Source: an uncultured Planctomycetaceae bacterium
GTDB lineage: Bacteria > Planctomycetota > Planctomycetia > Isosphaerales > Isosphaeraceae
NCBI GenBank assembly: GCA_963833985.1
Contig: CAWIAD010000002.1
Span: 1,760,001 to 1,824,000, forward strand
DNA length: 64,000 nucleotides
Reading direction: 5' to 3'
The stretch's first letter is position 1, and each line of letters starts with the position of its first letter. Positions 20,034-31,168 of this stretch are shown here, one piece after another. The notes under the pieces were generated by a model. The model worked only from the letters and a program-made list of their open reading frames with translations, did not search any database and was not told the origin of the DNA. The position numbers and the translations under genes were made by a program.

Positions 20034-20172
20034 GGATCACTCCCGCTCTTGAGCGCACTCGCTCTGGCAAGCCGCTGGCTCGGCTTGATCTGAGTGAGAC
20101 CGGTTTTCACCCGGATCGCAGACTGCCCCCCTATCAAAACTCAGAAACTGCCTGCAACCGTTAGAAAACACC

Positions 20173-20691
20173 CTAGACCGAGGGGAATGGCAAGAGGTCT
20201 GGACCGGCGGGGTGGCCGGACGGATGATCCGCCTCCGTCTGGCCGCTGGTTAAGGATTTACCGTGAGGCTCGTCGGTCCGCTCCGCACCCTGGCCCATGA
20301 ACTGGAGCAGGATCTGCCTGGAAGGCGGGTCGTCGCCATCAAGGGCCGCCGGATCGGCGGCCACCAGGTCCGTCCCGTGAGGTGCATCGACGAAGAAAAG
20401 AACGCGGGACCTGTCAGCGTCCACCACGCCGAGGGAAACGGAATCGCCGATCGGCACCACTTGCTGATTCACCAGGGTTAAATGGCAAACTTCCATGCCC
20501 GGCGGATTGGCCCTGGAAAGAGCATCCTGCCGCTCTCGCTGGTCTTTCCGCTCCGCCCCGCGGGTGAGTTGCAGGCTGCGCGGGGCGGTGAGGCGGACGC
20601 GGACGGTGGCCTTCGCCACGGTCAATACCTCAATGCGAATCATGCCATCAATCAGGATGGCTTCATTCTTCTTGCGTGACAGAACCACCAT
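20173..20691 (-). CDS. Divergent CsrA-like protein with two tandem CsrA-like domains
   Basis: MVVLSRKKNEAILIDGMIRIEVLTVAKATVRVRLTAP matches the CsrA pattern; second repeat HLTLVNQQVVPIGDSVSLGVVDADRSRVLFFVDAP. Confidence 0.75.
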   Translation of the reverse strand: MVVLSRKKNEAILIDGMIRIEVLTVAKATVRVRLTAPRSLQLTRGAERKDQRERQDALSRANPPGMEVCHLTLVNQQVVPIGDSVSLGVVDADRSRVLFFVDAPHGTDLVAADPAALDGDDPPSRQILLQFMGQGAERTDEPHGKSLTSGQTEADHPSGHPAGPDLLPFPSV

Positions 20692-20851
20692 GCAGGCCTT
20701 CCGAGTGTGCTTGCCGAGCTCGCCAGGTTGGGCTGGACCTGGGTGGCGCGGCGCCAGGCAAATTCGACCTCGACGTGACTGCGCAAGAGTGCCGACCTTC
20801 GGGACCGGGCACTCTTGCGAATGACCGGCAGGGGCGAGCACTGGTGACCGT

Positions 20852-21319
20852 TCACGCTTCGAGTGCATCGGAGCGGTAGTCGGCTCCCTGGTTGAGCCGT
20901 TCGATCATACCGCGGAGGTTCAGCTCCTGGGTTCCGGCAAGTGGTTCAAGGTTCAAGAGCAGGTTCTCGCTCAGAATCGAGATTCTGATGGTCGCTCGAC
21001 TGCGGTCGACGGCCAGCAATTGCAGCTCGATGAGCCCGGTACCCACCTTGATGCGATCCCCACCCCGGAGGGTCATCGCCAGGTTCGTGAACTGCCGCGC
21101 CGGCCTCGTTGAGGTCGCGGGCGGCTGCCCGTTGCGGGCCCCTTCGCGGATGATGTGGACATCGGAGCGGCCCACGAAGCAAAACTTCGCGGATCCACCG
21201 CGGAACTGGACCGGTAGGAACGTGAGCAGATGCTCGTGGAGCAAGGTTCCATCCGAATGCCTCACCACGCGCTTGAGGTCAACGGGGTGGTCACGTCCGA
21301 TCTGAGTAGACACGTCCAT
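20852..21319 (-). CDS. Highly divergent CsrA-like protein (one clear and one degenerate domain)
   Basis: LAMTLRGGDRIKVGTGLIELQLLAVDRSRATIRI resembles CsrA beta1-5; N-terminal RGGSAKFCFVGRSDVHIIRE resembles the CsrA C-terminus; AGGAG SD before ATG 21319. Confidence 0.55.
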   Translation of the reverse strand: MDVSTQIGRDHPVDLKRVVRHSDGTLLHEHLLTFLPVQFRGGSAKFCFVGRSDVHIIREGARNGQPPATSTRPARQFTNLAMTLRGGDRIKVGTGLIELQLLAVDRSRATIRISILSENLLLNLEPLAGTQELNLRGMIERLNQGADYRSDALEA

Positions 21320-21326
21320 GCGGATA

Positions 21327-21388
21327 CTCCTGCCTGATGTTGTGCGGCCCCGGTGAAGATCGAGACCTTCCTGGTGCAATCCTTTGCA
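21327..21388 (-). promoter_or_regulatory. Putative CsrA-binding GGA hairpins in the leader of the csrA-like pair
   Basis: Minus strand TGCAA-AGGA-TTGCA (21375-21388), ACC-AGGAA-GGT (21365-21375) and SD CAGGAG (21327-21332). Confidence 0.5.
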
Positions 21389-21560
21389 GCCGGTCGATGC
21401 GCCGGCTGGTGCTCGGCAGGACCCAGTGAGTCATCAGTGACCCGGGTGCGGAGCTTCAGTATGAGTACTCCATCCGCACTTCTCCGTCAAGCGGTCTTTG
21501 AAGTGTGAGCAATATGCCGATATGCTGCCGATATGCGCTATCGCGGTCGAGCTGGGTTGA

Positions 21561-21791
21561 TCACGAGTCGAGCAGCTCGTCGGCGGACTGGGCCGAGAAG
21601 ATGTTCGCTCCCCAGCGCAGGAGCGTATCGGGGTCTGCGGCGCGGAGCCGCTCGCGCTGGGGTTCTTCCAGCACGCCGAAGCGCTGTTCCAGCTGTCGCA
21701 TCAGCAGGGCGGCCTCACCCTCCTGCCGTCCTTCGATGCGTCCCTGCTGCTTCCACTCTTCGGTCCATTCGAGCACGCGCTGGGCGATCAT
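21561..21791 (-). CDS. Putative internally initiated small antitoxin (RpnS-like), 76 aa, copy 1
   Basis: In-frame AGGAGGT-acgaagc-ATG (SD 21799-21805) inside rpn. Confidence 0.7.
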   Translation of the reverse strand: MIAQRVLEWTEEWKQQGRIEGRQEGEAALLMRQLEQRFGVLEEPQRERLRAADPDTLLRWGANIFSAQSADELLDS

Positions 21792-22508
21792 GCTTCGTAC
21801 CTCCTGAAGGTCGTTGACATCCGGCAATTCTACCCCGGGCATGCGACCCGGCAAGAAGACCCGTTTCAGCCAGACCGCGAAGGCGCGGCGGAGCGAGTCC
21901 TGCTCGGGCGATTCGAGCCACAGCACCAGTGCCGCCAGCACCTCCTGCACGGCTTCGGGGTTGCGGCTGTTCTCGATGCGGAAGAGTGCGGCAGCGAGGT
22001 TGCGTAGTCCGGCCAGTTCGCTCTCGGCATAGCGTCCTTCATCGACGAGCAAGTAGCGGAATTCGGGGCGGTATCGCTCGAGTCCCGCGGGGACAGCCCC
22101 GATGAGTTCCGCGAGCGTCTGGGGAGCATCCCAGCGTGGCAGGCCGTTGTACAGGACCAGAGGCAAGACTGGAGGCAGCTTCCCCTCGGGGGTGAGATTT
22201 CCCGTGCGGATGAGATCCTGGTAGAGCAGTCCCAGGTAGGCCATCAGACGCACGGCCATGAACAGGTCGATGGTGGATTGGAACTCGATGAGCAAGTAGA
22301 CGTAGAGCCATTGGTTTTGCAGGCGGACGCGCCAGACGAGGTCGTCCTCGCGTTCTCGGAGTTCATCGGCGACATAGCTGCCGCTGACTTTTTCGAGGGT
22401 GTTGAAGTCGAGTTCAGCGACCCATTGTTCACGGACGAAGCCGCGCAACAGGTCGGTCACCATTTCGGGGTGTGAGAAGAGCAGCTTGTAGCTGTGGTCG
22501 TGGTCCAT
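21561..22508 (-). CDS. Rpn-family recombination-promoting nuclease/putative transposase (RpnL) with C-terminal DUF4351-like domain, copy 1
   Basis: DHSYKLLFSHPEMV, REREDDLVWRV, LLIEFQS, MAVRLMAY, LPPVLPLVLYNG (Transposase_31/PD-(D/E)XK); GRxE repeats. Confidence 0.93.
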   Translation of the reverse strand: MDHDHSYKLLFSHPEMVTDLLRGFVREQWVAELDFNTLEKVSGSYVADELREREDDLVWRVRLQNQWLYVYLLIEFQSTIDLFMAVRLMAYLGLLYQDLIRTGNLTPEGKLPPVLPLVLYNGLPRWDAPQTLAELIGAVPAGLERYRPEFRYLLVDEGRYAESELAGLRNLAAALFRIENSRNPEAVQEVLAALVLWLESPEQDSLRRAFAVWLKRVFLPGRMPGVELPDVNDLQEVRSMIAQRVLEWTEEWKQQGRIEGRQEGEAALLMRQLEQRFGVLEEPQRERLRAADPDTLLRWGANIFSAQSADELLDS

Positions 22509-22583
22509 GCAGCCAGTCTACGGCAACACTTCCGCGTGATAAACGCATTGCTCCATGGACCCGAAGCGGTCGGGCTGGATTGA

Positions 22584-22862
22584 TCACGAGTCGAGCACCT
22601 CGTTGACGGACTGGGCCGAGAAGATGTTCGCTCCCCAGCGTAGGAGCGTATCGGGGTCTGCGGCGCGGAGCCGCTCGCGCTGGGGTTCTTCCAGCACGCC
22701 GAAGCGCTGTTCCAGGAGGCGCATCAGCAGGGCGGCCTCACCCTCCTGCCGCCCTTCGAGCCGCCCCTCCTGTCGTCCTTCGAGCCGCCCCTCCTGTCGT
22801 CCTTCGATGCGTCCCTGCTGCTTCCACTCTTCGGTCCATTCGAGCACGCGCTGGGCGATCAT
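22584..22862 (-). CDS. Putative internally initiated RpnS-like antitoxin, 92 aa, copy 2
   Basis: SD AGGAGGT at 22870-22876, ATG 22862. Confidence 0.7.
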   Translation of the reverse strand: MIAQRVLEWTEEWKQQGRIEGRQEGRLEGRQEGRLEGRQEGEAALLMRLLEQRFGVLEEPQRERLRAADPDTLLRWGANIFSAQSVNEVLDS

Positions 22863-23579
22863 GCTTCGTACCTCCTGAAGGTCGTTGACATCCGGCAATT
22901 CTACCCCGGGCATGCGACCCGGCAAGAAGACCCGTTTCAGCCAGACCGCGAAGGCGCGGCGGAGCGAGTCCTGCTCGGGCGATTCGAGCCACAGCACCAG
23001 TGCCGCCAGCACCTCCTGCACGGCTTCGGGGTTGCGGCTGTTCTCGATGCGGAAGAGTGCGGCAGCGAGGTTGCGTAGTCCGGCCAGTTCGCTCTCGGCA
23101 TAGCGTCCTTCATCGACGAGCAAGTAGCGGAATTCGGGGCGGTATCGCTCGAGTCCCGCGGGGACAGCCCCGATGAGTTCCGCGAGCGTCTGGGGAGCAT
23201 CCCAGCGTGGCAGGCCGTTGTACAGGACCAGAGGCAAGACTGGAGGCAGCTTTCCCTCGGGGGTGAGATTCCCCGTGCGGATGAGATCCTGGTAGAGCAG
23301 TCCCAGGTAGGCCATCAGACGCACGGCCATGAACAGGTCGATGGTGGATTGGAACTCGATGAGCAAGTAGACGTAGAGCCATTGGTTTTGCAGGCGGACG
23401 CGCCAGACGAGGTCGTCCTCGCGTTCTCGGAGTTCATCGGCGACATAGCTGCCGCTGACTTTTTCGAGGGTGTTGAAGTCGAGTTCAGCGACCCATTGTT
23501 CACGGACGAAGCCGCGCAGCAGGTCGGTCACCATTTCGGGGTGTGAGAAGAGCAGCTTGTAGCTGTGGTCGTGGTCCAT
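22584..23579 (-). CDS. Rpn-family nuclease (RpnL), copy 2
   Basis: Nuclease domain identical in protein sequence to copy 1; six GRxE repeats (22743-22814). Confidence 0.93.
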   Translation of the reverse strand: MDHDHSYKLLFSHPEMVTDLLRGFVREQWVAELDFNTLEKVSGSYVADELREREDDLVWRVRLQNQWLYVYLLIEFQSTIDLFMAVRLMAYLGLLYQDLIRTGNLTPEGKLPPVLPLVLYNGLPRWDAPQTLAELIGAVPAGLERYRPEFRYLLVDEGRYAESELAGLRNLAAALFRIENSRNPEAVQEVLAALVLWLESPEQDSLRRAFAVWLKRVFLPGRMPGVELPDVNDLQEVRSMIAQRVLEWTEEWKQQGRIEGRQEGRLEGRQEGRLEGRQEGEAALLMRLLEQRFGVLEEPQRERLRAADPDTLLRWGANIFSAQSVNEVLDS

Positions 23580-23654
23580 GCAGCCAGTCTACGGCAACAC
23601 TTCCGCGTGAGAAACGCGTTGCTCCATGGACCCGAAGCGGTCGGGCTGGATTGA

Positions 23655-23897
23655 TCACGAGTCGAGCACCTCGTTGACGGACTGGGCCGAGAAGATGTTC
23701 GCTCCCCAGCGCAGGAGCGTATCGGGGTCTGCGGCGCGGAGCCGCTCGCGCTGGGGTTCTTCCAGCACGCCGAAGCGCTGTTCCAGCAAGCGCATCAGCA
23801 GGGCGGCCTCACCCTCCTGCCGCCCTTCGATGCGTCCTTCGATGCGTCCCTGCTGCTTCCACTCTTCGGTCCATTCGAGCACGCGCTGGGCGATCAT
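23655..23897 (-). CDS. Putative internally initiated RpnS-like antitoxin, 80 aa, copy 3
   Basis: SD AGGAGGT at 23905-23911, ATG 23897. Confidence 0.7.
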   Translation of the reverse strand: MIAQRVLEWTEEWKQQGRIEGRIEGRQEGEAALLMRLLEQRFGVLEEPQRERLRAADPDTLLRWGANIFSAQSVNEVLDS

Positions 23898-24614
23898 GCT
23901 TCGTACCTCCTGAAGGTCGTTGACATCCGGCAATTCTACCCCGGGCATGCGACCCGGCAAGAAGACCCGTTTCAGCCAGACCGCGAAGGCGCGGCGGAGC
24001 GAGTCCTGCTCGGGCGATTCGAGCCACAGCACCAGTGCCGCCAGCACCTCCTGCACGGCTTCGGGGTTGCGGCTGTTCTCGATGCGGAAGAGTGCGGCAG
24101 CGAGGTTGCGTAGTCCGGCCAGTTCGCTCTCGGCATAGCGTCCTTCATCGACGAGCAAGTAGCGGAATTCGGGGCGGTATCGCTCGAGTCCCGCGGGGAC
24201 AGCCCCGATGAGTTCCGCGAGCGTCTGGGGAGCATCCCAGCGTGGCAGGCCGTTGTACAGGACCAGAGGCAAGACTGGAGGCAGCTTTCCCTCGGGGGTG
24301 AGATTCCCCGTGCGGATGAGATCCTGGTAGAGCAGTCCCAGGTAGGCCATCAGACGCACGGCCATGAACAGGTCGATGGTGGATTGGAACTCGATGAGCA
24401 AGTAGACGTAGAGCCATTGGTTTTGCAGGCGGACGCGCCAGACGAGGTCGTCCTCGCGTTCTCGGAGTTCATCGGCGACATAGCTGCCGCTGACTTTTTC
24501 GAGGGTGTTGAAGTCGAGTTCAGCGACCCATTGTTCACGGACGAAGCCGCGCAGCAGGTCGGTCACCATTTCGGGGTGTGAGAAGAGCAGCTTGTAGCTG
24601 TGGTCGTGGTCCAT
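23655..24614 (-). CDS. Rpn-family nuclease (RpnL), copy 3
   Basis: Identical nuclease domain; three GRxE repeats (23814-23849). Confidence 0.93.
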   Translation of the reverse strand: MDHDHSYKLLFSHPEMVTDLLRGFVREQWVAELDFNTLEKVSGSYVADELREREDDLVWRVRLQNQWLYVYLLIEFQSTIDLFMAVRLMAYLGLLYQDLIRTGNLTPEGKLPPVLPLVLYNGLPRWDAPQTLAELIGAVPAGLERYRPEFRYLLVDEGRYAESELAGLRNLAAALFRIENSRNPEAVQEVLAALVLWLESPEQDSLRRAFAVWLKRVFLPGRMPGVELPDVNDLQEVRSMIAQRVLEWTEEWKQQGRIEGRIEGRQEGEAALLMRLLEQRFGVLEEPQRERLRAADPDTLLRWGANIFSAQSVNEVLDS

Positions 24615-24620
24615 GCAGCC

Positions 24621-24648
24621 AGTCTACGGCAACACTTCCGCGTGAGAA
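24621..24648 (-). promoter_or_regulatory. Putative leaderless sigma70-type promoter of rpn (repeated at 22515-22542 and 23586-23613)
   Basis: TTCTCA (TTATCA in copy 1)-N16-TAGACT-N6-ATG; no SD before the rpnL ATG. Confidence 0.5.
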
Positions 24649-24778
24649 ACGCGTTGCTCCATGGACCCGAAGCGGTTTACGTAACGGAAGCGCCAGGAAC
24701 CGAACGGGGGGTGGATCGTTCCCTCCAGGATTCGGTTTCTGGCACTTGAGGTTTGCTCGTGCCTGCTGATGGCGCGGA

Positions 24779-27114: not shown

Positions 27115-27484
27115 AATTCAGCTCCTTCGGTGAACGAGTGCGTGAAAGCTGCTCGAATCGGAACAGCCCGCGGAGCCCGTCAGCTTCGCGCATTTTACCT
27201 GATACCCAGGTTTCGGAGGGTCGTTCATCCCCCCCGTATCGGACGTGTATTCGCCGGCCGGACGGAATATTCGGCCCATTCCGTGCCGCCACGCTCTCCC
27301 GGCCGCCCGGATGAGTCTTTTTTATTTGGCCGGCTGCCGCCGGTTTCGCCAGAATCGGAAGAGTTCTGATGTCACATGGAGAGTGAGTCTCATGGCGCGG
27401 CTGTGGGCGAACCCCGATGCGGCCTGGCCGACCACTCCCCCGGCGCCAGGTCAGAACGAACCACCATCTCTCGGGAGCAGCCTC

Positions 27485-30400
27485 ATGACCAGCATCGATA
27501 CGGAGCGTTACCTCGCGACGCTGGAACGAGCTGAGGCCTTGAAGCTGGCCGAGATGCTCCGTTTCCCCACGCCCGATGAGAGTGTCCTGCTCGAGCAGCA
27601 CCTCGGGGAGCAGCGATTCCGCCGGATGCGCAAGATGGCCCAGACGACCATGGCGCGCGTCGAGGCGGCCGGTGCGCGCGGGCACGTGGTTTTCTTGCCG
27701 GGTCTCTGCGGCAGCGAGCTGACCGCGTTCAGCCTGGGAGGAGGCCAGGAACCGCTCTGGCCGAAGGTGCGGCGCCTGGCCGACGACGGGATCGATCGCC
27801 TGAAAGTGGCCGCCGAGCCAGGCGCCGGCCTGGAGGGCGAGTCTCTCAGATCCACGGGCGTACTCAAGCGCTACTATGGTGCGATCCTGCTCCACCTGGC
27901 GGCACGCTGGACCGTGCGCTCGTTCCACTACGACTGGCGGATGGGGCTCGATGAGGTTGCCGAAGAGCTTTTTACCAGTCTATGCGACCCGAACTGGCTG
28001 CCTCCTGGTGAACGGGTGCATATCGTGGCGCACGGTACCGGGGGTCTCATTGCATGGGCGCTGCGGGCCAGGCACCCCGAGCTCTGGGAACCATTGCGGC
28101 GCTGCGGGCGGGTGATCTCCCTGGGCACGCCATCCCGCGGAACCTACGCGGCGGTCCAGGCGCTTGCGGGAGTGGCCGGTCTGGTGAAGAAACTCGCCGC
28201 GCTGAAGGGGGCCATCGATCGTGATGGACTGCTCAAGGTCATCCTCTCGTTCCCGTCGCTTTACCAGTTGTTGCCCGCGCCTTCCCTGAACGCCCAGGCC
28301 GAGATGCTCTACGAGGCGAACACCTATACCGACCTGGAAAGCGTGGACGTGGAGGTTCCCCAGCGCCATCTTGATCGGGGCCGCGCGTTTCACGAGGGTC
28401 TCGCCGCGCTCAAGGAAGTGGGCGGCTTTTACACCATCCTGGGGACGGGCGAGCCCACGATTTGCGGCATCGACAACATCAAGAAGCTGGACGACCTGGG
28501 AGCCTACTCGGCCGGATACCAGGGTGATGGACTCGTGCCCCTTGACCTGGCTCGCCTGGAATGGGTTCCCGAGCCTCTCAGGCGAGAGAACTCCTATCTG
28601 GTTGCGGCGGAGCATGCCGGGCTGGTGTCCAACCCCGAGGTCCTGGCTGCCGTCGACGACCTGCTGGCGCAGGGCGGCACCGACCGCCTGGCCCACTGCA
28701 CTGATGAGCAGCTCTCTCCGGAAGCTGCCGTCCCGGGCGGCCCACACGGCGCACGAAGAGTGACGAGGTCTCCAGGTTGGCTCGGGGGCGCGGCTGACCC
28801 GGAGAAAAAGGCCTGGCACATGGTCTCCTTGCGTGCGGACCAGGATCTCCGCAGGACCGATAAGCTCACTCGTCAGGTCCGTCTGGCAGCCGATGGCACG
28901 CCCCCAGGCCCAATGGATCGTCAACTCGAAGAATGTCTGCTGCGCGACCTGTTGACTCCCGGCCAGGTTCTGGCCAGGTCCGTCGAGAGGTCGCCGCTGC
29001 CACTGAACCACCCGAGGGTTCAGCTCAGCCTGGCGTGCTTGAACCTCGCCGGCATGGATTACGAGGCATACGGTGCCAGGGCCGGCCTTGCCGTCGACGC
29101 GATCGCCGTCGGCCATTACCTGGGTGTCAAGCCGGCGGGCAAGGAGCGCGAGCTCGATGAGCAAATCTCTCGAGCGATCCTGAAACTCGGCCCCGGTCAA
29201 AAGCTTGCGGAGGCCGACCTCGTTTTGAGCCAGTTCGCCGAGCGCGGCATTCTCCGCGGCGAGCTTGGCCAGCCCTTCTGCTTGCCCGACCCGCGTGATC
29301 CCACGGGTAGGCGTCTGATCATGATCGCCGGCATGGGATTGCCGGGAAGATTCGGTGCGCCGGAGTTGGCCGTGCTGGCTCGCGAACTATGCTGGGCGGC
29401 AGGCCGGCTGGGCCGGCAACATCTGGTGATCGGTTCCATCGGTGCCCGTTACAATTCCGTTGGCCCCGGCGAGGCGATGCGCGCCTGGATCCGGGGATTG
29501 AAGAACGCGATCACGGGCTCGTCGCAGGACGAGAACCGCCACATCCAGCGGCTCACGATCCTCTGGGACGATCCGCGGCACATCGAGGCGGCCCAGATGG
29601 CCATCCTCGACGAGATCCGCGAGCTCCTGGCGCGGCAGCGCATGGAGATCGAGTTCACGCCCTACGATGAAGCCGAGCTTGCCAGGCATCGCGAGGACGG
29701 CTTCCAGCGCGACCGGGACGAGCTGGAAGAGGAGCTGAAGCGAAGACGGGAATCCGCGGCCGGGCTGCGTGAGATCGATCCTCCGCCGATCCGGGTGACT
29801 CTCGGCCTGGAGGGCAACTCCTACCGTTTCGGAGCGCTCACGGAAGATGCGTCGATCCCCGAGCGATCGATACCGCTGGACCCGGCCCTGGTGCAGGAGG
29901 CGAACGCGCTGATTGCCGCGGAGCCTGACCCCGACCATCAATTCTGCAACGGCGAGTTCCTTTCCCGCTTGCTCGTGCCCGAGGAGCTGCGCGTGGCGCT
30001 GGAGGGCCCTGCGCCCCTGGTGATGATGCTCGACTCGTTGACCTCGCGGATCCACTGGGAGATGGTCGTCCGCCCGGATCCGGTGGATACCGGGGGGTAC
30101 GGCTACCCGGATGCCGATGAGTTCGAGGACCCGTTTGATCGCAAGTTCGAGTATGCCGATGCCTTCCTGGGAACGAGCCGGGGTTTCACCCGGCAGCTGC
30201 GCACGGCATTGGCGCCTCCGCCCGAGCCTCCTCCGCCGTTGCGGCGTCTGCTTCGCGTCCTGGTGGTTGCCAACCCGGCCGAGGATGCGCCGCTCCCCGG
30301 CGCTGAACGCGAAGGCCACGAAGTTGCCGATGCCTTCGAGGCCTTCAACGCGATTTATGAGAACTGGTGCGACAACCGTGTTGAGGTGGTGCGTCTCATC

Positions 30401-31168
30401 GGGCCGAAGGAGGCGACACGCACCAAGGTGCTGGAGCACCTCATGATCCGCCGCTACGATGTGCTGCATTTCGCCGGGCACTGCTATTTTGACAGGGACA
30501 ACCCCACGCTCTCCGGCTGGATCTTTCACAAGGCCAAGGACCAGCGGATTTCCGCCTACGAGCTGAACCGCATCGATCGCGTGCCCAGGTTTGTCTTCTC
30601 CAACGCGTGCGAGTCCGGCGTGATGGCGGAATCGTCCAGGCCGTATTCGCCAGCACTGGCACCAAGCTTCGCCGAGGCCTTCTTCCAGCGCGGCGTGTCC
30701 AACTTCGTGTGCACCGCGTGGCCGGTGGACGACAGCGCGGCGCTGGAGTTCGCGCTCTGGGTCTACTGTTACTTGCTCGGCCTGCGGCCGCGCAGTGGCA
30801 AGGGGCCGAAATACATGAACGCTCCACCCGAGCCGATGCACAGCGCAATGCGCCAGGCGCGGCTGCAAATCGCCGGCCAGCCGCACGGCGTTCGGACATG
30901 GGGTGCCTACCAGCACTACGGCAACCCGTACTACCGCTTCTTCGATCCCCAGTCGATGAACGGTTCCACCAGGGTCGTCTCGAACGCGGCGGACTTGAAT
31001 GGACAGTCTGCCAGTGCACCTTCTGCCGATCCGCAGCCGCGCACCGGGGATGTCCCGGCTAGTCCAACTCCGGCCCCCGCCCCCGGTCAGCCTGCCAGGA
31101 ACGCGTCCCCGGCCCAGCCTTCAAGAAATGGACCCGCACGCAAGAAGGTCAAGCCGGTCACGTCCTGA
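27485..31168 (+). CDS. Multidomain protein: alpha/beta-hydrolase (LCAT-like) + M17-N/macro-like domain + CHAT (caspase HetF-like) protease
   Basis: FLPGLCGSEL, YDWR, IVAHGTGG, LGTP, SLYQLLP, GDGLVP, EH (hydrolase); AVGHYLG...IAGMG (M17-N-like); LRVLVVANP, LPGAEREG, VLHFAGH, FSNACESG, WPVDD, WGAYQHYG (CHAT). Start uncertain. Confidence 0.85.
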   Translation: MTSIDTERYLATLERAEALKLAEMLRFPTPDESVLLEQHLGEQRFRRMRKMAQTTMARVEAAGARGHVVFLPGLCGSELTAFSLGGGQEPLWPKVRRLADDGIDRLKVAAEPGAGLEGESLRSTGVLKRYYGAILLHLAARWTVRSFHYDWRMGLDEVAEELFTSLCDPNWLPPGERVHIVAHGTGGLIAWALRARHPELWEPLRRCGRVISLGTPSRGTYAAVQALAGVAGLVKKLAALKGAIDRDGLLKVILSFPSLYQLLPAPSLNAQAEMLYEANTYTDLESVDVEVPQRHLDRGRAFHEGLAALKEVGGFYTILGTGEPTICGIDNIKKLDDLGAYSAGYQGDGLVPLDLARLEWVPEPLRRENSYLVAAEHAGLVSNPEVLAAVDDLLAQGGTDRLAHCTDEQLSPEAAVPGGPHGARRVTRSPGWLGGAADPEKKAWHMVSLRADQDLRRTDKLTRQVRLAADGTPPGPMDRQLEECLLRDLLTPGQVLARSVERSPLPLNHPRVQLSLACLNLAGMDYEAYGARAGLAVDAIAVGHYLGVKPAGKERELDEQISRAILKLGPGQKLAEADLVLSQFAERGILRGELGQPFCLPDPRDPTGRRLIMIAGMGLPGRFGAPELAVLARELCWAAGRLGRQHLVIGSIGARYNSVGPGEAMRAWIRGLKNAITGSSQDENRHIQRLTILWDDPRHIEAAQMAILDEIRELLARQRMEIEFTPYDEAELARHREDGFQRDRDELEEELKRRRESAAGLREIDPPPIRVTLGLEGNSYRFGALTEDASIPERSIPLDPALVQEANALIAAEPDPDHQFCNGEFLSRLLVPEELRVALEGPAPLVMMLDSLTSRIHWEMVVRPDPVDTGGYGYPDADEFEDPFDRKFEYADAFLGTSRGFTRQLRTALAPPPEPPPPLRRLLRVLVVANPAEDAPLPGAEREGHEVADAFEAFNAIYENWCDNRVEVVRLIGPKEATRTKVLEHLMIRRYDVLHFAGHCYFDRDNPTLSGWIFHKAKDQRISAYELNRIDRVPRFVFSNACESGVMAESSRPYSPALAPSFAEAFFQRGVSNFVCTAWPVDDSAALEFALWVYCYLLGLRPRSGKGPKYMNAPPEPMHSAMRQARLQIAGQPHGVRTWGAYQHYGNPYYRFFDPQSMNGSTRVVSNAADLNGQSASAPSADPQPRTGDVPASPTPAPAPGQPARNASPAQPSRNGPARKKVKPVTS

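Follow-up and report, generated by a model that had tools for sequence, protein, structure and literature searches.

Repeat-number insulation as the probable role of tail variation in a head-to-tail rpn nuclease array of a planctomycete

Introduction

Why does a bacterial genome hold three nearly identical nuclease genes in a row, and why do the copies differ in their tails? The question is raised by a head-to-tail triplet of Rpn-type genes in the window, the 64,000-nt stretch of DNA analyzed here (positions 1,760,001–1,824,000 of contig CAWIAD010000002.1, assembly GCA_963833985.1, from an uncultured Planctomycetaceae bacterium). A sequence-only reading had taken the triplet for an undescribed defense array that keeps the toxin constant and varies an antitoxin or sensor tail.

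Rpn systems were described by Zhong et al. 2023 (PMC10400941; this paper, like PMC5350276, PMC9403480, PMC2701414 and PMC3924837, is cited here for the part of its text that was available). In that work, the small protein RpnS is translated from a start inside the rpn gene and inhibits the full-length toxin RpnL, and the number of repeats in RpnS sets toxin–antitoxin specificity. Arrays of rpn genes arise by tandem direct duplication (Fig. S1B, Parabacteroides). A commentary by Koonin (PMC10400984) proposed that variation in the repeats prevents the copies from cross-inhibiting one another. Tandem rpn arrays of 11, 3 and 3 copies are also on record from Thermosynechococcus TA-1, whose genome contains many Uma2 genes (PMC9403480). 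A literature search found no Rpn study later than Zhong 2023.

The triplet is probably an Rpn toxin–antitoxin array in which repeat number insulates the copies and recombination homogenizes them. Its toxin would be leaderless and weakly expressed, and its internal antitoxin well translated; we infer the steps from translation onward.

Results

Architecture of the array

The array occupies positions 21543–24676 on the minus strand, with units of 1023, 1071 and 1035 bp arranged head to tail. The unit boundaries coincide with the word GCGGT at 21543, 22566, 23637 and 24672, a 5-bp microhomology. Unit 1 (21543–22565) is the last in the direction of transcription and adjoins unit 2 (22566–23636), which adjoins unit 3 (23637–24676, with the closing junction word at 24672–24676). 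Each unit contains one intact minus-strand open reading frame (ORF), and these encode RpnL copy 1 (21561–22508; 315 residues), copy 2 (22584–23579; 331 residues) and copy 3 (23655–24614; 319 residues). Pairwise identity between units is 94–98% over more than 1 kb, far above chance.

Codons 1–255 specify the same protein in all three copies and contain three synonymous single-nucleotide polymorphisms, all private to copy 1. The copies differ mainly in a 12-bp repeat that encodes GRxE, present in two units in copy 1 (21720–21743), six in copy 2 (22743–22814) and three in copy 3 (23814–23849). Five different 12-bp units occur that differ synonymously, so recent slippage alone is insufficient as their source. 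Codons 271 and 272 (21693–21698, 22716–22721 and 23787–23792) read CGA CAG, CGC CTC and CGC TTG in the three copies, and the tail contains either SADELLDS or SVNEVLDS. Besides repeat number, only four residues differ among the copies. The sequence-only reading had recognized the units, the junction word, the repeat numbers and the tail variants correctly, and the constant part that it put at ~240 residues extends to 255 codons.

An apparent triplet could also be produced if alleles of related strains were concatenated in the metagenome assembly. No spanning read or contig was found: sequencing run X1, which may be related to the source sample, yielded two 151-nt contigs over 21313–21613 and one unrelated 46-nt piece, and the two contigs are identical to the sequence at the last copy's 3′ junction, with nothing over the array interior. 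The assembly (10.16 Mb, 96% complete) also carries 3.9% contamination. However, it consists of two contigs of 3.5 and 6.6 Mb, which suggests long reads. At the inner junctions, a gene trailer abuts a gene leader at the 5-bp word, an adjacency foreign to a single-copy genome, and all ORFs are intact. Moreover, a tandem rpn pair with copies 1149 bp apart is found at another locus (L176), and such arrays are known from complete genomes (PMC9403480). An assembly artifact is therefore very unlikely.

Nuclease part and predicted structure

All three proteins match Transposase_31 (YhgA-like; PF04754) and DUF4351 (PF14261) above the Pfam cut-offs, with 110 bits (cut-off 21) and 27.9 bits, respectively, for copy 1. 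The tested residues of E. coli RpnA, D11, D63, E82, Q84 and R94 (PMC5350276), align with D4, D56, E75, Q77 and R87, and all five are retained in the array copies. D4, D56 and E75 are invariant across 43 sequences. The structure model (43 sequences; pLDDT 84) consists of a mixed nuclease core, a helix spanning residues 234–277 and three short terminal helices. The predicted helix 234–277 carries both the repeats and codons 271–272. The nearest structural neighbors of residues ~1–160 are PD-(D/E)XK, or restriction-like, nucleases, although the matches are weak (top Z-score of 6.9 for 2vld). The RpnAS structure (7TH0) is absent among the 50 structural matches listed, which is no evidence against a relationship, and a sequence search for solved relatives found none. 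Among phage records, nine weak matches with 25–32% identity were obtained. By Pfam and its catalytic residues, each copy has a predicted PD-(D/E)XK nuclease part and a DUF4351 tail, and its product, RpnL, is likely a toxic DNase.

Predicted internal antitoxin

In every array copy, AGGAGG is positioned 8 nt ahead of an internal ATG codon, Met240 (21800–21805, 22871–22876 and 23906–23911 in copies 1, 2 and 3). Translation from this codon would give predicted RpnS proteins of 76 residues (copy 1, 21561–21791), 92 residues (copy 2, 22584–22862) and 80 residues (copy 3, 23655–23897), all on the minus strand. The repeats begin 16 residues past Met240 and thus fall inside the published distance of 8–20 residues from the internal Met, in the first helix (PMC10400941). 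A consensus scan further detected a candidate internal RpnS promoter (9/12 matches) at 21827–21854 in copy 1, with the same site at 22898–22925 and 23933–23960, also on the minus strand; the candidate ends 36 nt before Met240, and the three hits represent one site repeated three times.

The internal start is conserved in homologues. From 105 distinct full-length genes in fetched loci, four from the host genome and one lacking the internal Met were set aside, which left 100. A ribosome-site-like word precedes the internal Met in 97 of these, and the site is strong in 90, compared with a mean of 43 and a maximum of 53 under synonymous recoding. A −10-like hexamer is located 30–40 nt upstream of the internal Met in 21 of the 100 homologues (recoded mean of 9, maximum of 16). 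These features suggest that the repeat-bearing tail of each copy is likely made separately as its own antitoxin, in line with the toxin family with a constant nuclease part and a variable antitoxin tail that had been named from sequence. That RpnS is translated in this array and inhibits RpnL is what we infer by analogy with the described systems.

Internally deleted rpn copies were observed at four loci (L240, L075, L112 and L117), in tandem in L240. They contain the promoter and the first ~40 codons followed by the RpnS region, and are likely stand-alone antitoxin genes.

Start of the toxin gene

A −10-like hexamer, TAGACT, is found on the minus strand 6 nt before the RpnL ATG in each copy (22515–22520, 23586–23591 and 24621–24626 for copies 1, 2 and 3). 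The homologue counts that follow cover only genes whose aligned start is an ATG. TAnnnT occurs exactly 6 nt before this ATG in 26 of the 42 distinct upstream regions taken from genome loci and in 37 of 65 in a larger set. When homologues are clustered at 80% identity, this spacing is present in 18 of 32 clusters, and any other offset in at most one. A ribosome site precedes the toxin ATG in only three of the 32 clusters and never alongside the hexamer. As a control, the long ORFs of the host contig were scanned, and 30 of the 3533 have the hexamer at that spacing. The RpnL toxin of this clade thus looks leaderless, whereas E. coli rpnA has a ribosome site at its toxin start. A literature search on a leaderless rpn toxin start found nothing relevant. 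The predicted leaderless start offers a simple possible reason for the low RpnL:RpnS ratio considered in PMC10400941.

Fourth copy, recombination and distribution

A fourth copy, 99.4% identical and missed in the sequence-only reading, is located on the other contig (G000:C1:746709-747656). Its identity to the array starts 16 nt before the ATG, at the hexamer, and stops just ahead of the stop codon. The fourth copy is a mosaic that combines the head of copies 2 and 3 with the SADELL tail and two repeats of copy 1, and it has its own pair of codons at 271–272. The mosaic implies that the copies have recombined and fits the homogenization by recombination that had been proposed for the array.

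The fourth copy is flanked by 7-bp direct repeats, ATCTAGA, at 746708–746714 and 747716–747722. The stop codons of the upstream gene and of the fourth copy come from these repeats, and the word occurs 53 times in the genome. In the array itself, only the 5-bp junction word could represent a target-site duplication. Element ends like those of an insertion sequence with an ISNCY-like transposase were rejected; shared terminal inverted repeats and fixed ends are lacking, and upstream of its gene the dispersed copy has just 16 nt in common with the array.

The dispersed copy between direct repeats is one of the observations that bear on a different explanation of the array, in which the nuclease is selfish and self-amplifying. 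It would nick DNA near its own gene, and repair would duplicate or relocate the gene; its antitoxin would be addictive, each change in repeat number would create a new addiction, and the phage defense of the cell would gain nothing. RpnL-driven duplication was raised as a possibility by Zhong et al. 2023, and the locus is not in a defense island. Nevertheless, the available part of the same study reports phage protection by RpnP2, enrichment of rpn near defense genes and no sign of autonomous transposition. The direct repeats have a chance level of 0.005 with tight anchoring but 0.13 with loose anchoring, and near-identical rpn pairs in other genomes have exchanged upstream or downstream flanks and variable ends. 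The selfish explanation, which is compatible in part with an insulated toxin–antitoxin array, is considered unlikely.

The distribution of the family is patchy. The gene was found in one of 13 same-genus genomes, and the family in 20 of 151 genomes of a phylum sample. The comparison of the locus in related genomes, suggested by the sequence-only reading, was run, and the results refer to the matches listed. The array slot is empty in three relatives (G007, G008 and G009) and filled by other genes in five (G002, G003, G005, G010 and G011). The fourth-copy slot contains another gene in G001, G002, G004 and G010, which we take to be amidohydrolase-like, a shortened gene in G005, and a gap of <160 bp in G006, G007, G009 and G011. 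In a tree of 24 rows, the window gene is placed on an open fork, and no donor can therefore be named.

A second rpn-like clade, distant from the first, is represented at two further loci of the host genome. At G000:C2:171321-175472 (L254), the copies of a tandem pair have three versus four GRVE repeats, and the first copy is split by a ~2.2-kb insert with a 580-residue ORF, presumably transposase-like. A single gene at C2:5148797-5149735 (L030) carries GRNE and GRAE repeats.

Variation in the tail

With the fourth copy included, polymorphic sites are concentrated in the post-repeat tail (8/159 nt) relative to the head (3/765 nt; Fisher p = 7e-5). Across 31 nearest-neighbor homologue pairs, tails diverge ~2-fold faster than the nuclease part in DNA and ~3-fold faster in protein. 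This rate difference counts in favor of the view that the tails are phage sensors and that three variants widen the set of triggers, and distinct phage targets for the copies were suggested by Koonin (PMC10400984). However, besides repeat number the array copies differ at just the four residues noted above. The variation at codons 271–272 is mostly silent, and repeat number is tied to toxin–antitoxin pairing in PMC10400941, the available part of which leaves the release mechanism unsettled. The array gave no evidence for the broadened trigger recognition that the sequence-only reading had envisaged, and the published data show insulation between toxin–antitoxin pairs; a sensor role of the tails is improbable.

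A family-wide hotspot at codons 271–272 was rejected, since these codons show 0.39 and 0.42 changes per codon in the 31 homologue pairs, like the remaining tail. A diversity-generating retroelement target was also rejected; the changes involve all bases and are not adenine-specific, and a search elsewhere in the genome found no donor for the variants. That four otherwise near-identical genes have four codon pairs at this site is an observation for which the insulated array does not account.

Other tandem nuclease duplications in the genome

A self-comparison of the genome (at least 400 nt, 85% identity, offset of 0.4–4 kb) identified 32 tandem duplication loci. Ten of them hold at least two Rpn, Uma2 or DUF4058 genes, with the Rpn triplet among them. 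The 95 genes of these families make up 0.5% of the genome, and a rough binomial estimate that assumes 2% gives p = 4e-10, an enrichment that counts in favor of the selfish explanation. By inspection, many of the remaining loci resemble internal repeats of large proteins or duplicated transposase-like genes. One duplication, at G000:C2:3185578-3189090, is 99.8% identical and contains a 443-residue ORF that we take to be transposase-like.

Four tandem pairs of DUF4058 genes (G000:C2:423849-425764, 598781-600673, 1719809-1721793 and 6476193-6479257) and two of Uma2 genes (G000:C1:2728141-2729674 and C2:3406587-3408038) are near-identical except in a sharply bounded patch of 13–29 residues, in the helix around and after a conserved His. 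Loci L258–L260 are listed with these patch-bearing pairs. In the five in-frame pairs, with the patch taken as the window densest in differences, 63 amino-acid differences fall inside it and 15 in the remaining 1054 positions. The sixth pair, whose patch contains a frameshift, was not counted. Silent sites in the patch are saturated, with silent changes at 25 of 44 conserved codons inside versus 34 of 995 outside. No donor for the patches was found in the genome. Retroelement-type mutagenesis was rejected for the patches, in which the changes are of all kinds, many of them C–G and C–T, and not adenine-specific. The pattern is compatible with either gene conversion that leaves a divergence peak or the import of distant alleles.

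In relatives, 11 tandem sets from five genomes were compared and lend the pattern thin support, with two sets that resemble it. The few changes of L257 fall in the patch region, L261 is a mosaic, L265 is near-identical without a patch, and the other eight are old or unrelated neighbors. Two further Uma2 arrays of the host, of two and three copies (G000:C2:2060839-2063008 and 5676198-5678822), closely parallel the Rpn triplet, as their nuclease domains are identical and the count of 7-residue repeats at the C-terminus varies.

Neighborhood in the window

Of the genes around the array, a CsrA-domain gene and a ~154-residue gene that matches neither Pfam nor NCBIfam (window 20173–21379) are kept together in most relatives listed, just downstream of the variable slot. 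A 1307-residue protein with a C-terminal CHAT protease domain is encoded at 27245–31168, divergently from an SPFH gene, and gives one weak BovA match in PADLOC. An intergenic ~70-bp element at 20097–20170 has 48 partial matches genome-wide; a link to the nuclease genes was rejected, with 2/48 copies within 2 kb of one.

Discussion

The observations are most readily combined in the following scheme. An Rpn nuclease gene would have been triplicated head-to-tail by microhomology-mediated duplication followed by unequal crossing-over. RpnL would be produced from the full ORF, at a low level from a leaderless transcript, and RpnS from the internal start, by way of a separate promoter and a strong ribosome site. 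By analogy with the E. coli work, RpnS would bind and block RpnL through the repeat helix, and freed RpnL would damage DNA and limit some phages. Repeat number would keep each RpnL/RpnS pair from neutralizing the others, and recombination between copies would homogenize the nuclease part but leave differences in the antitoxin helix. With its two repeats, the fourth copy would be cross-neutralized by copy 1.

Several points weigh against this scheme. The NCBIfam model TIGR01784 matches at 40.5 bits, below its cut-off of 52.1, no PADLOC model matches the Rpn proteins, and every structural Z-score is below 8. The array proteins are only 25% identical to E. coli RpnA, with Ser in place of RpnA D165. 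Unlike RpnA, they have a longer, DUF4351-type tail, and the specificity rules of RpnA and RpnC are therefore extrapolated to this RpnS. The excess of tail changes outside the repeats is not significant when counted as events (3 versus 3, p = 0.07). In this genome, similar duplications affect two further nuclease families for which no internal antitoxin is known, so that duplication is not necessarily a sign of defense selection specific to Rpn. Finally, there is no defense island: by Pfam and PADLOC the neighbors are housekeeping-type genes, three of the four neighbors tested in PADLOC have no match, and no defense family was found among 20 other ORFs of the window.

The array resembles the E. 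coli RpnA–E and RpnP2 systems (PMC10400941) in its PF04754 nuclease, which retains the active-site residues of RpnA, in a ribosome site and Met inside the gene, in four-residue repeats, in patchy spread and in tandem arrays; the internal promoter of those systems has a candidate counterpart here. It differs in the 7-bp direct repeat at the dispersed copy, whereas the available part of that study finds no target-site duplications. Like Thermosynechococcus TA-1 (PMC9403480), the host combines rpn tandem arrays with many Uma2 genes. Since tandem rpn arrays, internal RpnS and repeat-number specificity are already in print (PMC10400941), and insulation as well (PMC10400984), the array itself is ordinary, and its description as an undescribed system does not hold.

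The Uma2 and DUF4058 pairs with a swapped helix are a more interesting lead than the Rpn array and the strongest of this analysis. Uma2 proteins (COG4636) are solo PD-(D/E)XK nucleases that form tandem cassettes of paralogues (PMC2701414), as they do in this genome. In contrast to Rpn, no internal antitoxin is described for Uma2 in the available part of that paper, and in contrast to its cassettes, the otherwise near-identical copies here differ by a swapped N-terminal helix. A swapped-helix patch in Uma2 or DUF4058 pairs was not found in the literature. The closest likeness is concerted evolution with a divergence peak (PMC3924837), where gene conversion keeps duplicates alike except at a selected site; the duplicates there are eukaryotic, whereas the sequence of one genome is considered here. 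A speculative extension, to which a low probability is given, is that the solo PD-(D/E)XK nucleases Rpn, Uma2 and DUF4058 share one undescribed diversification engine. Duplication and relocation would be self-driven, and conversion would remove all differences but those in one interaction or specificity helix, which is the repeat-bearing helix for Rpn and, for Uma2 and DUF4058, the one that follows the conserved His. Each copy would in this way become an insulated toxin or defense unit, and in this Rpn clade a leaderless toxin would be set against a strongly translated antitoxin.

Together, the array and its dispersed copy form a naturally matched set of four genes, whose nuclease parts are identical and whose repeats number 2, 2, 3 and 6. 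This set suits a direct test of repeat-number insulation and of differences in phage range, questions that come from PMC10400941 and PMC10400984. The swapped helix, in turn, is likely the specificity element of Uma2 and DUF4058, two very large families of unknown function.

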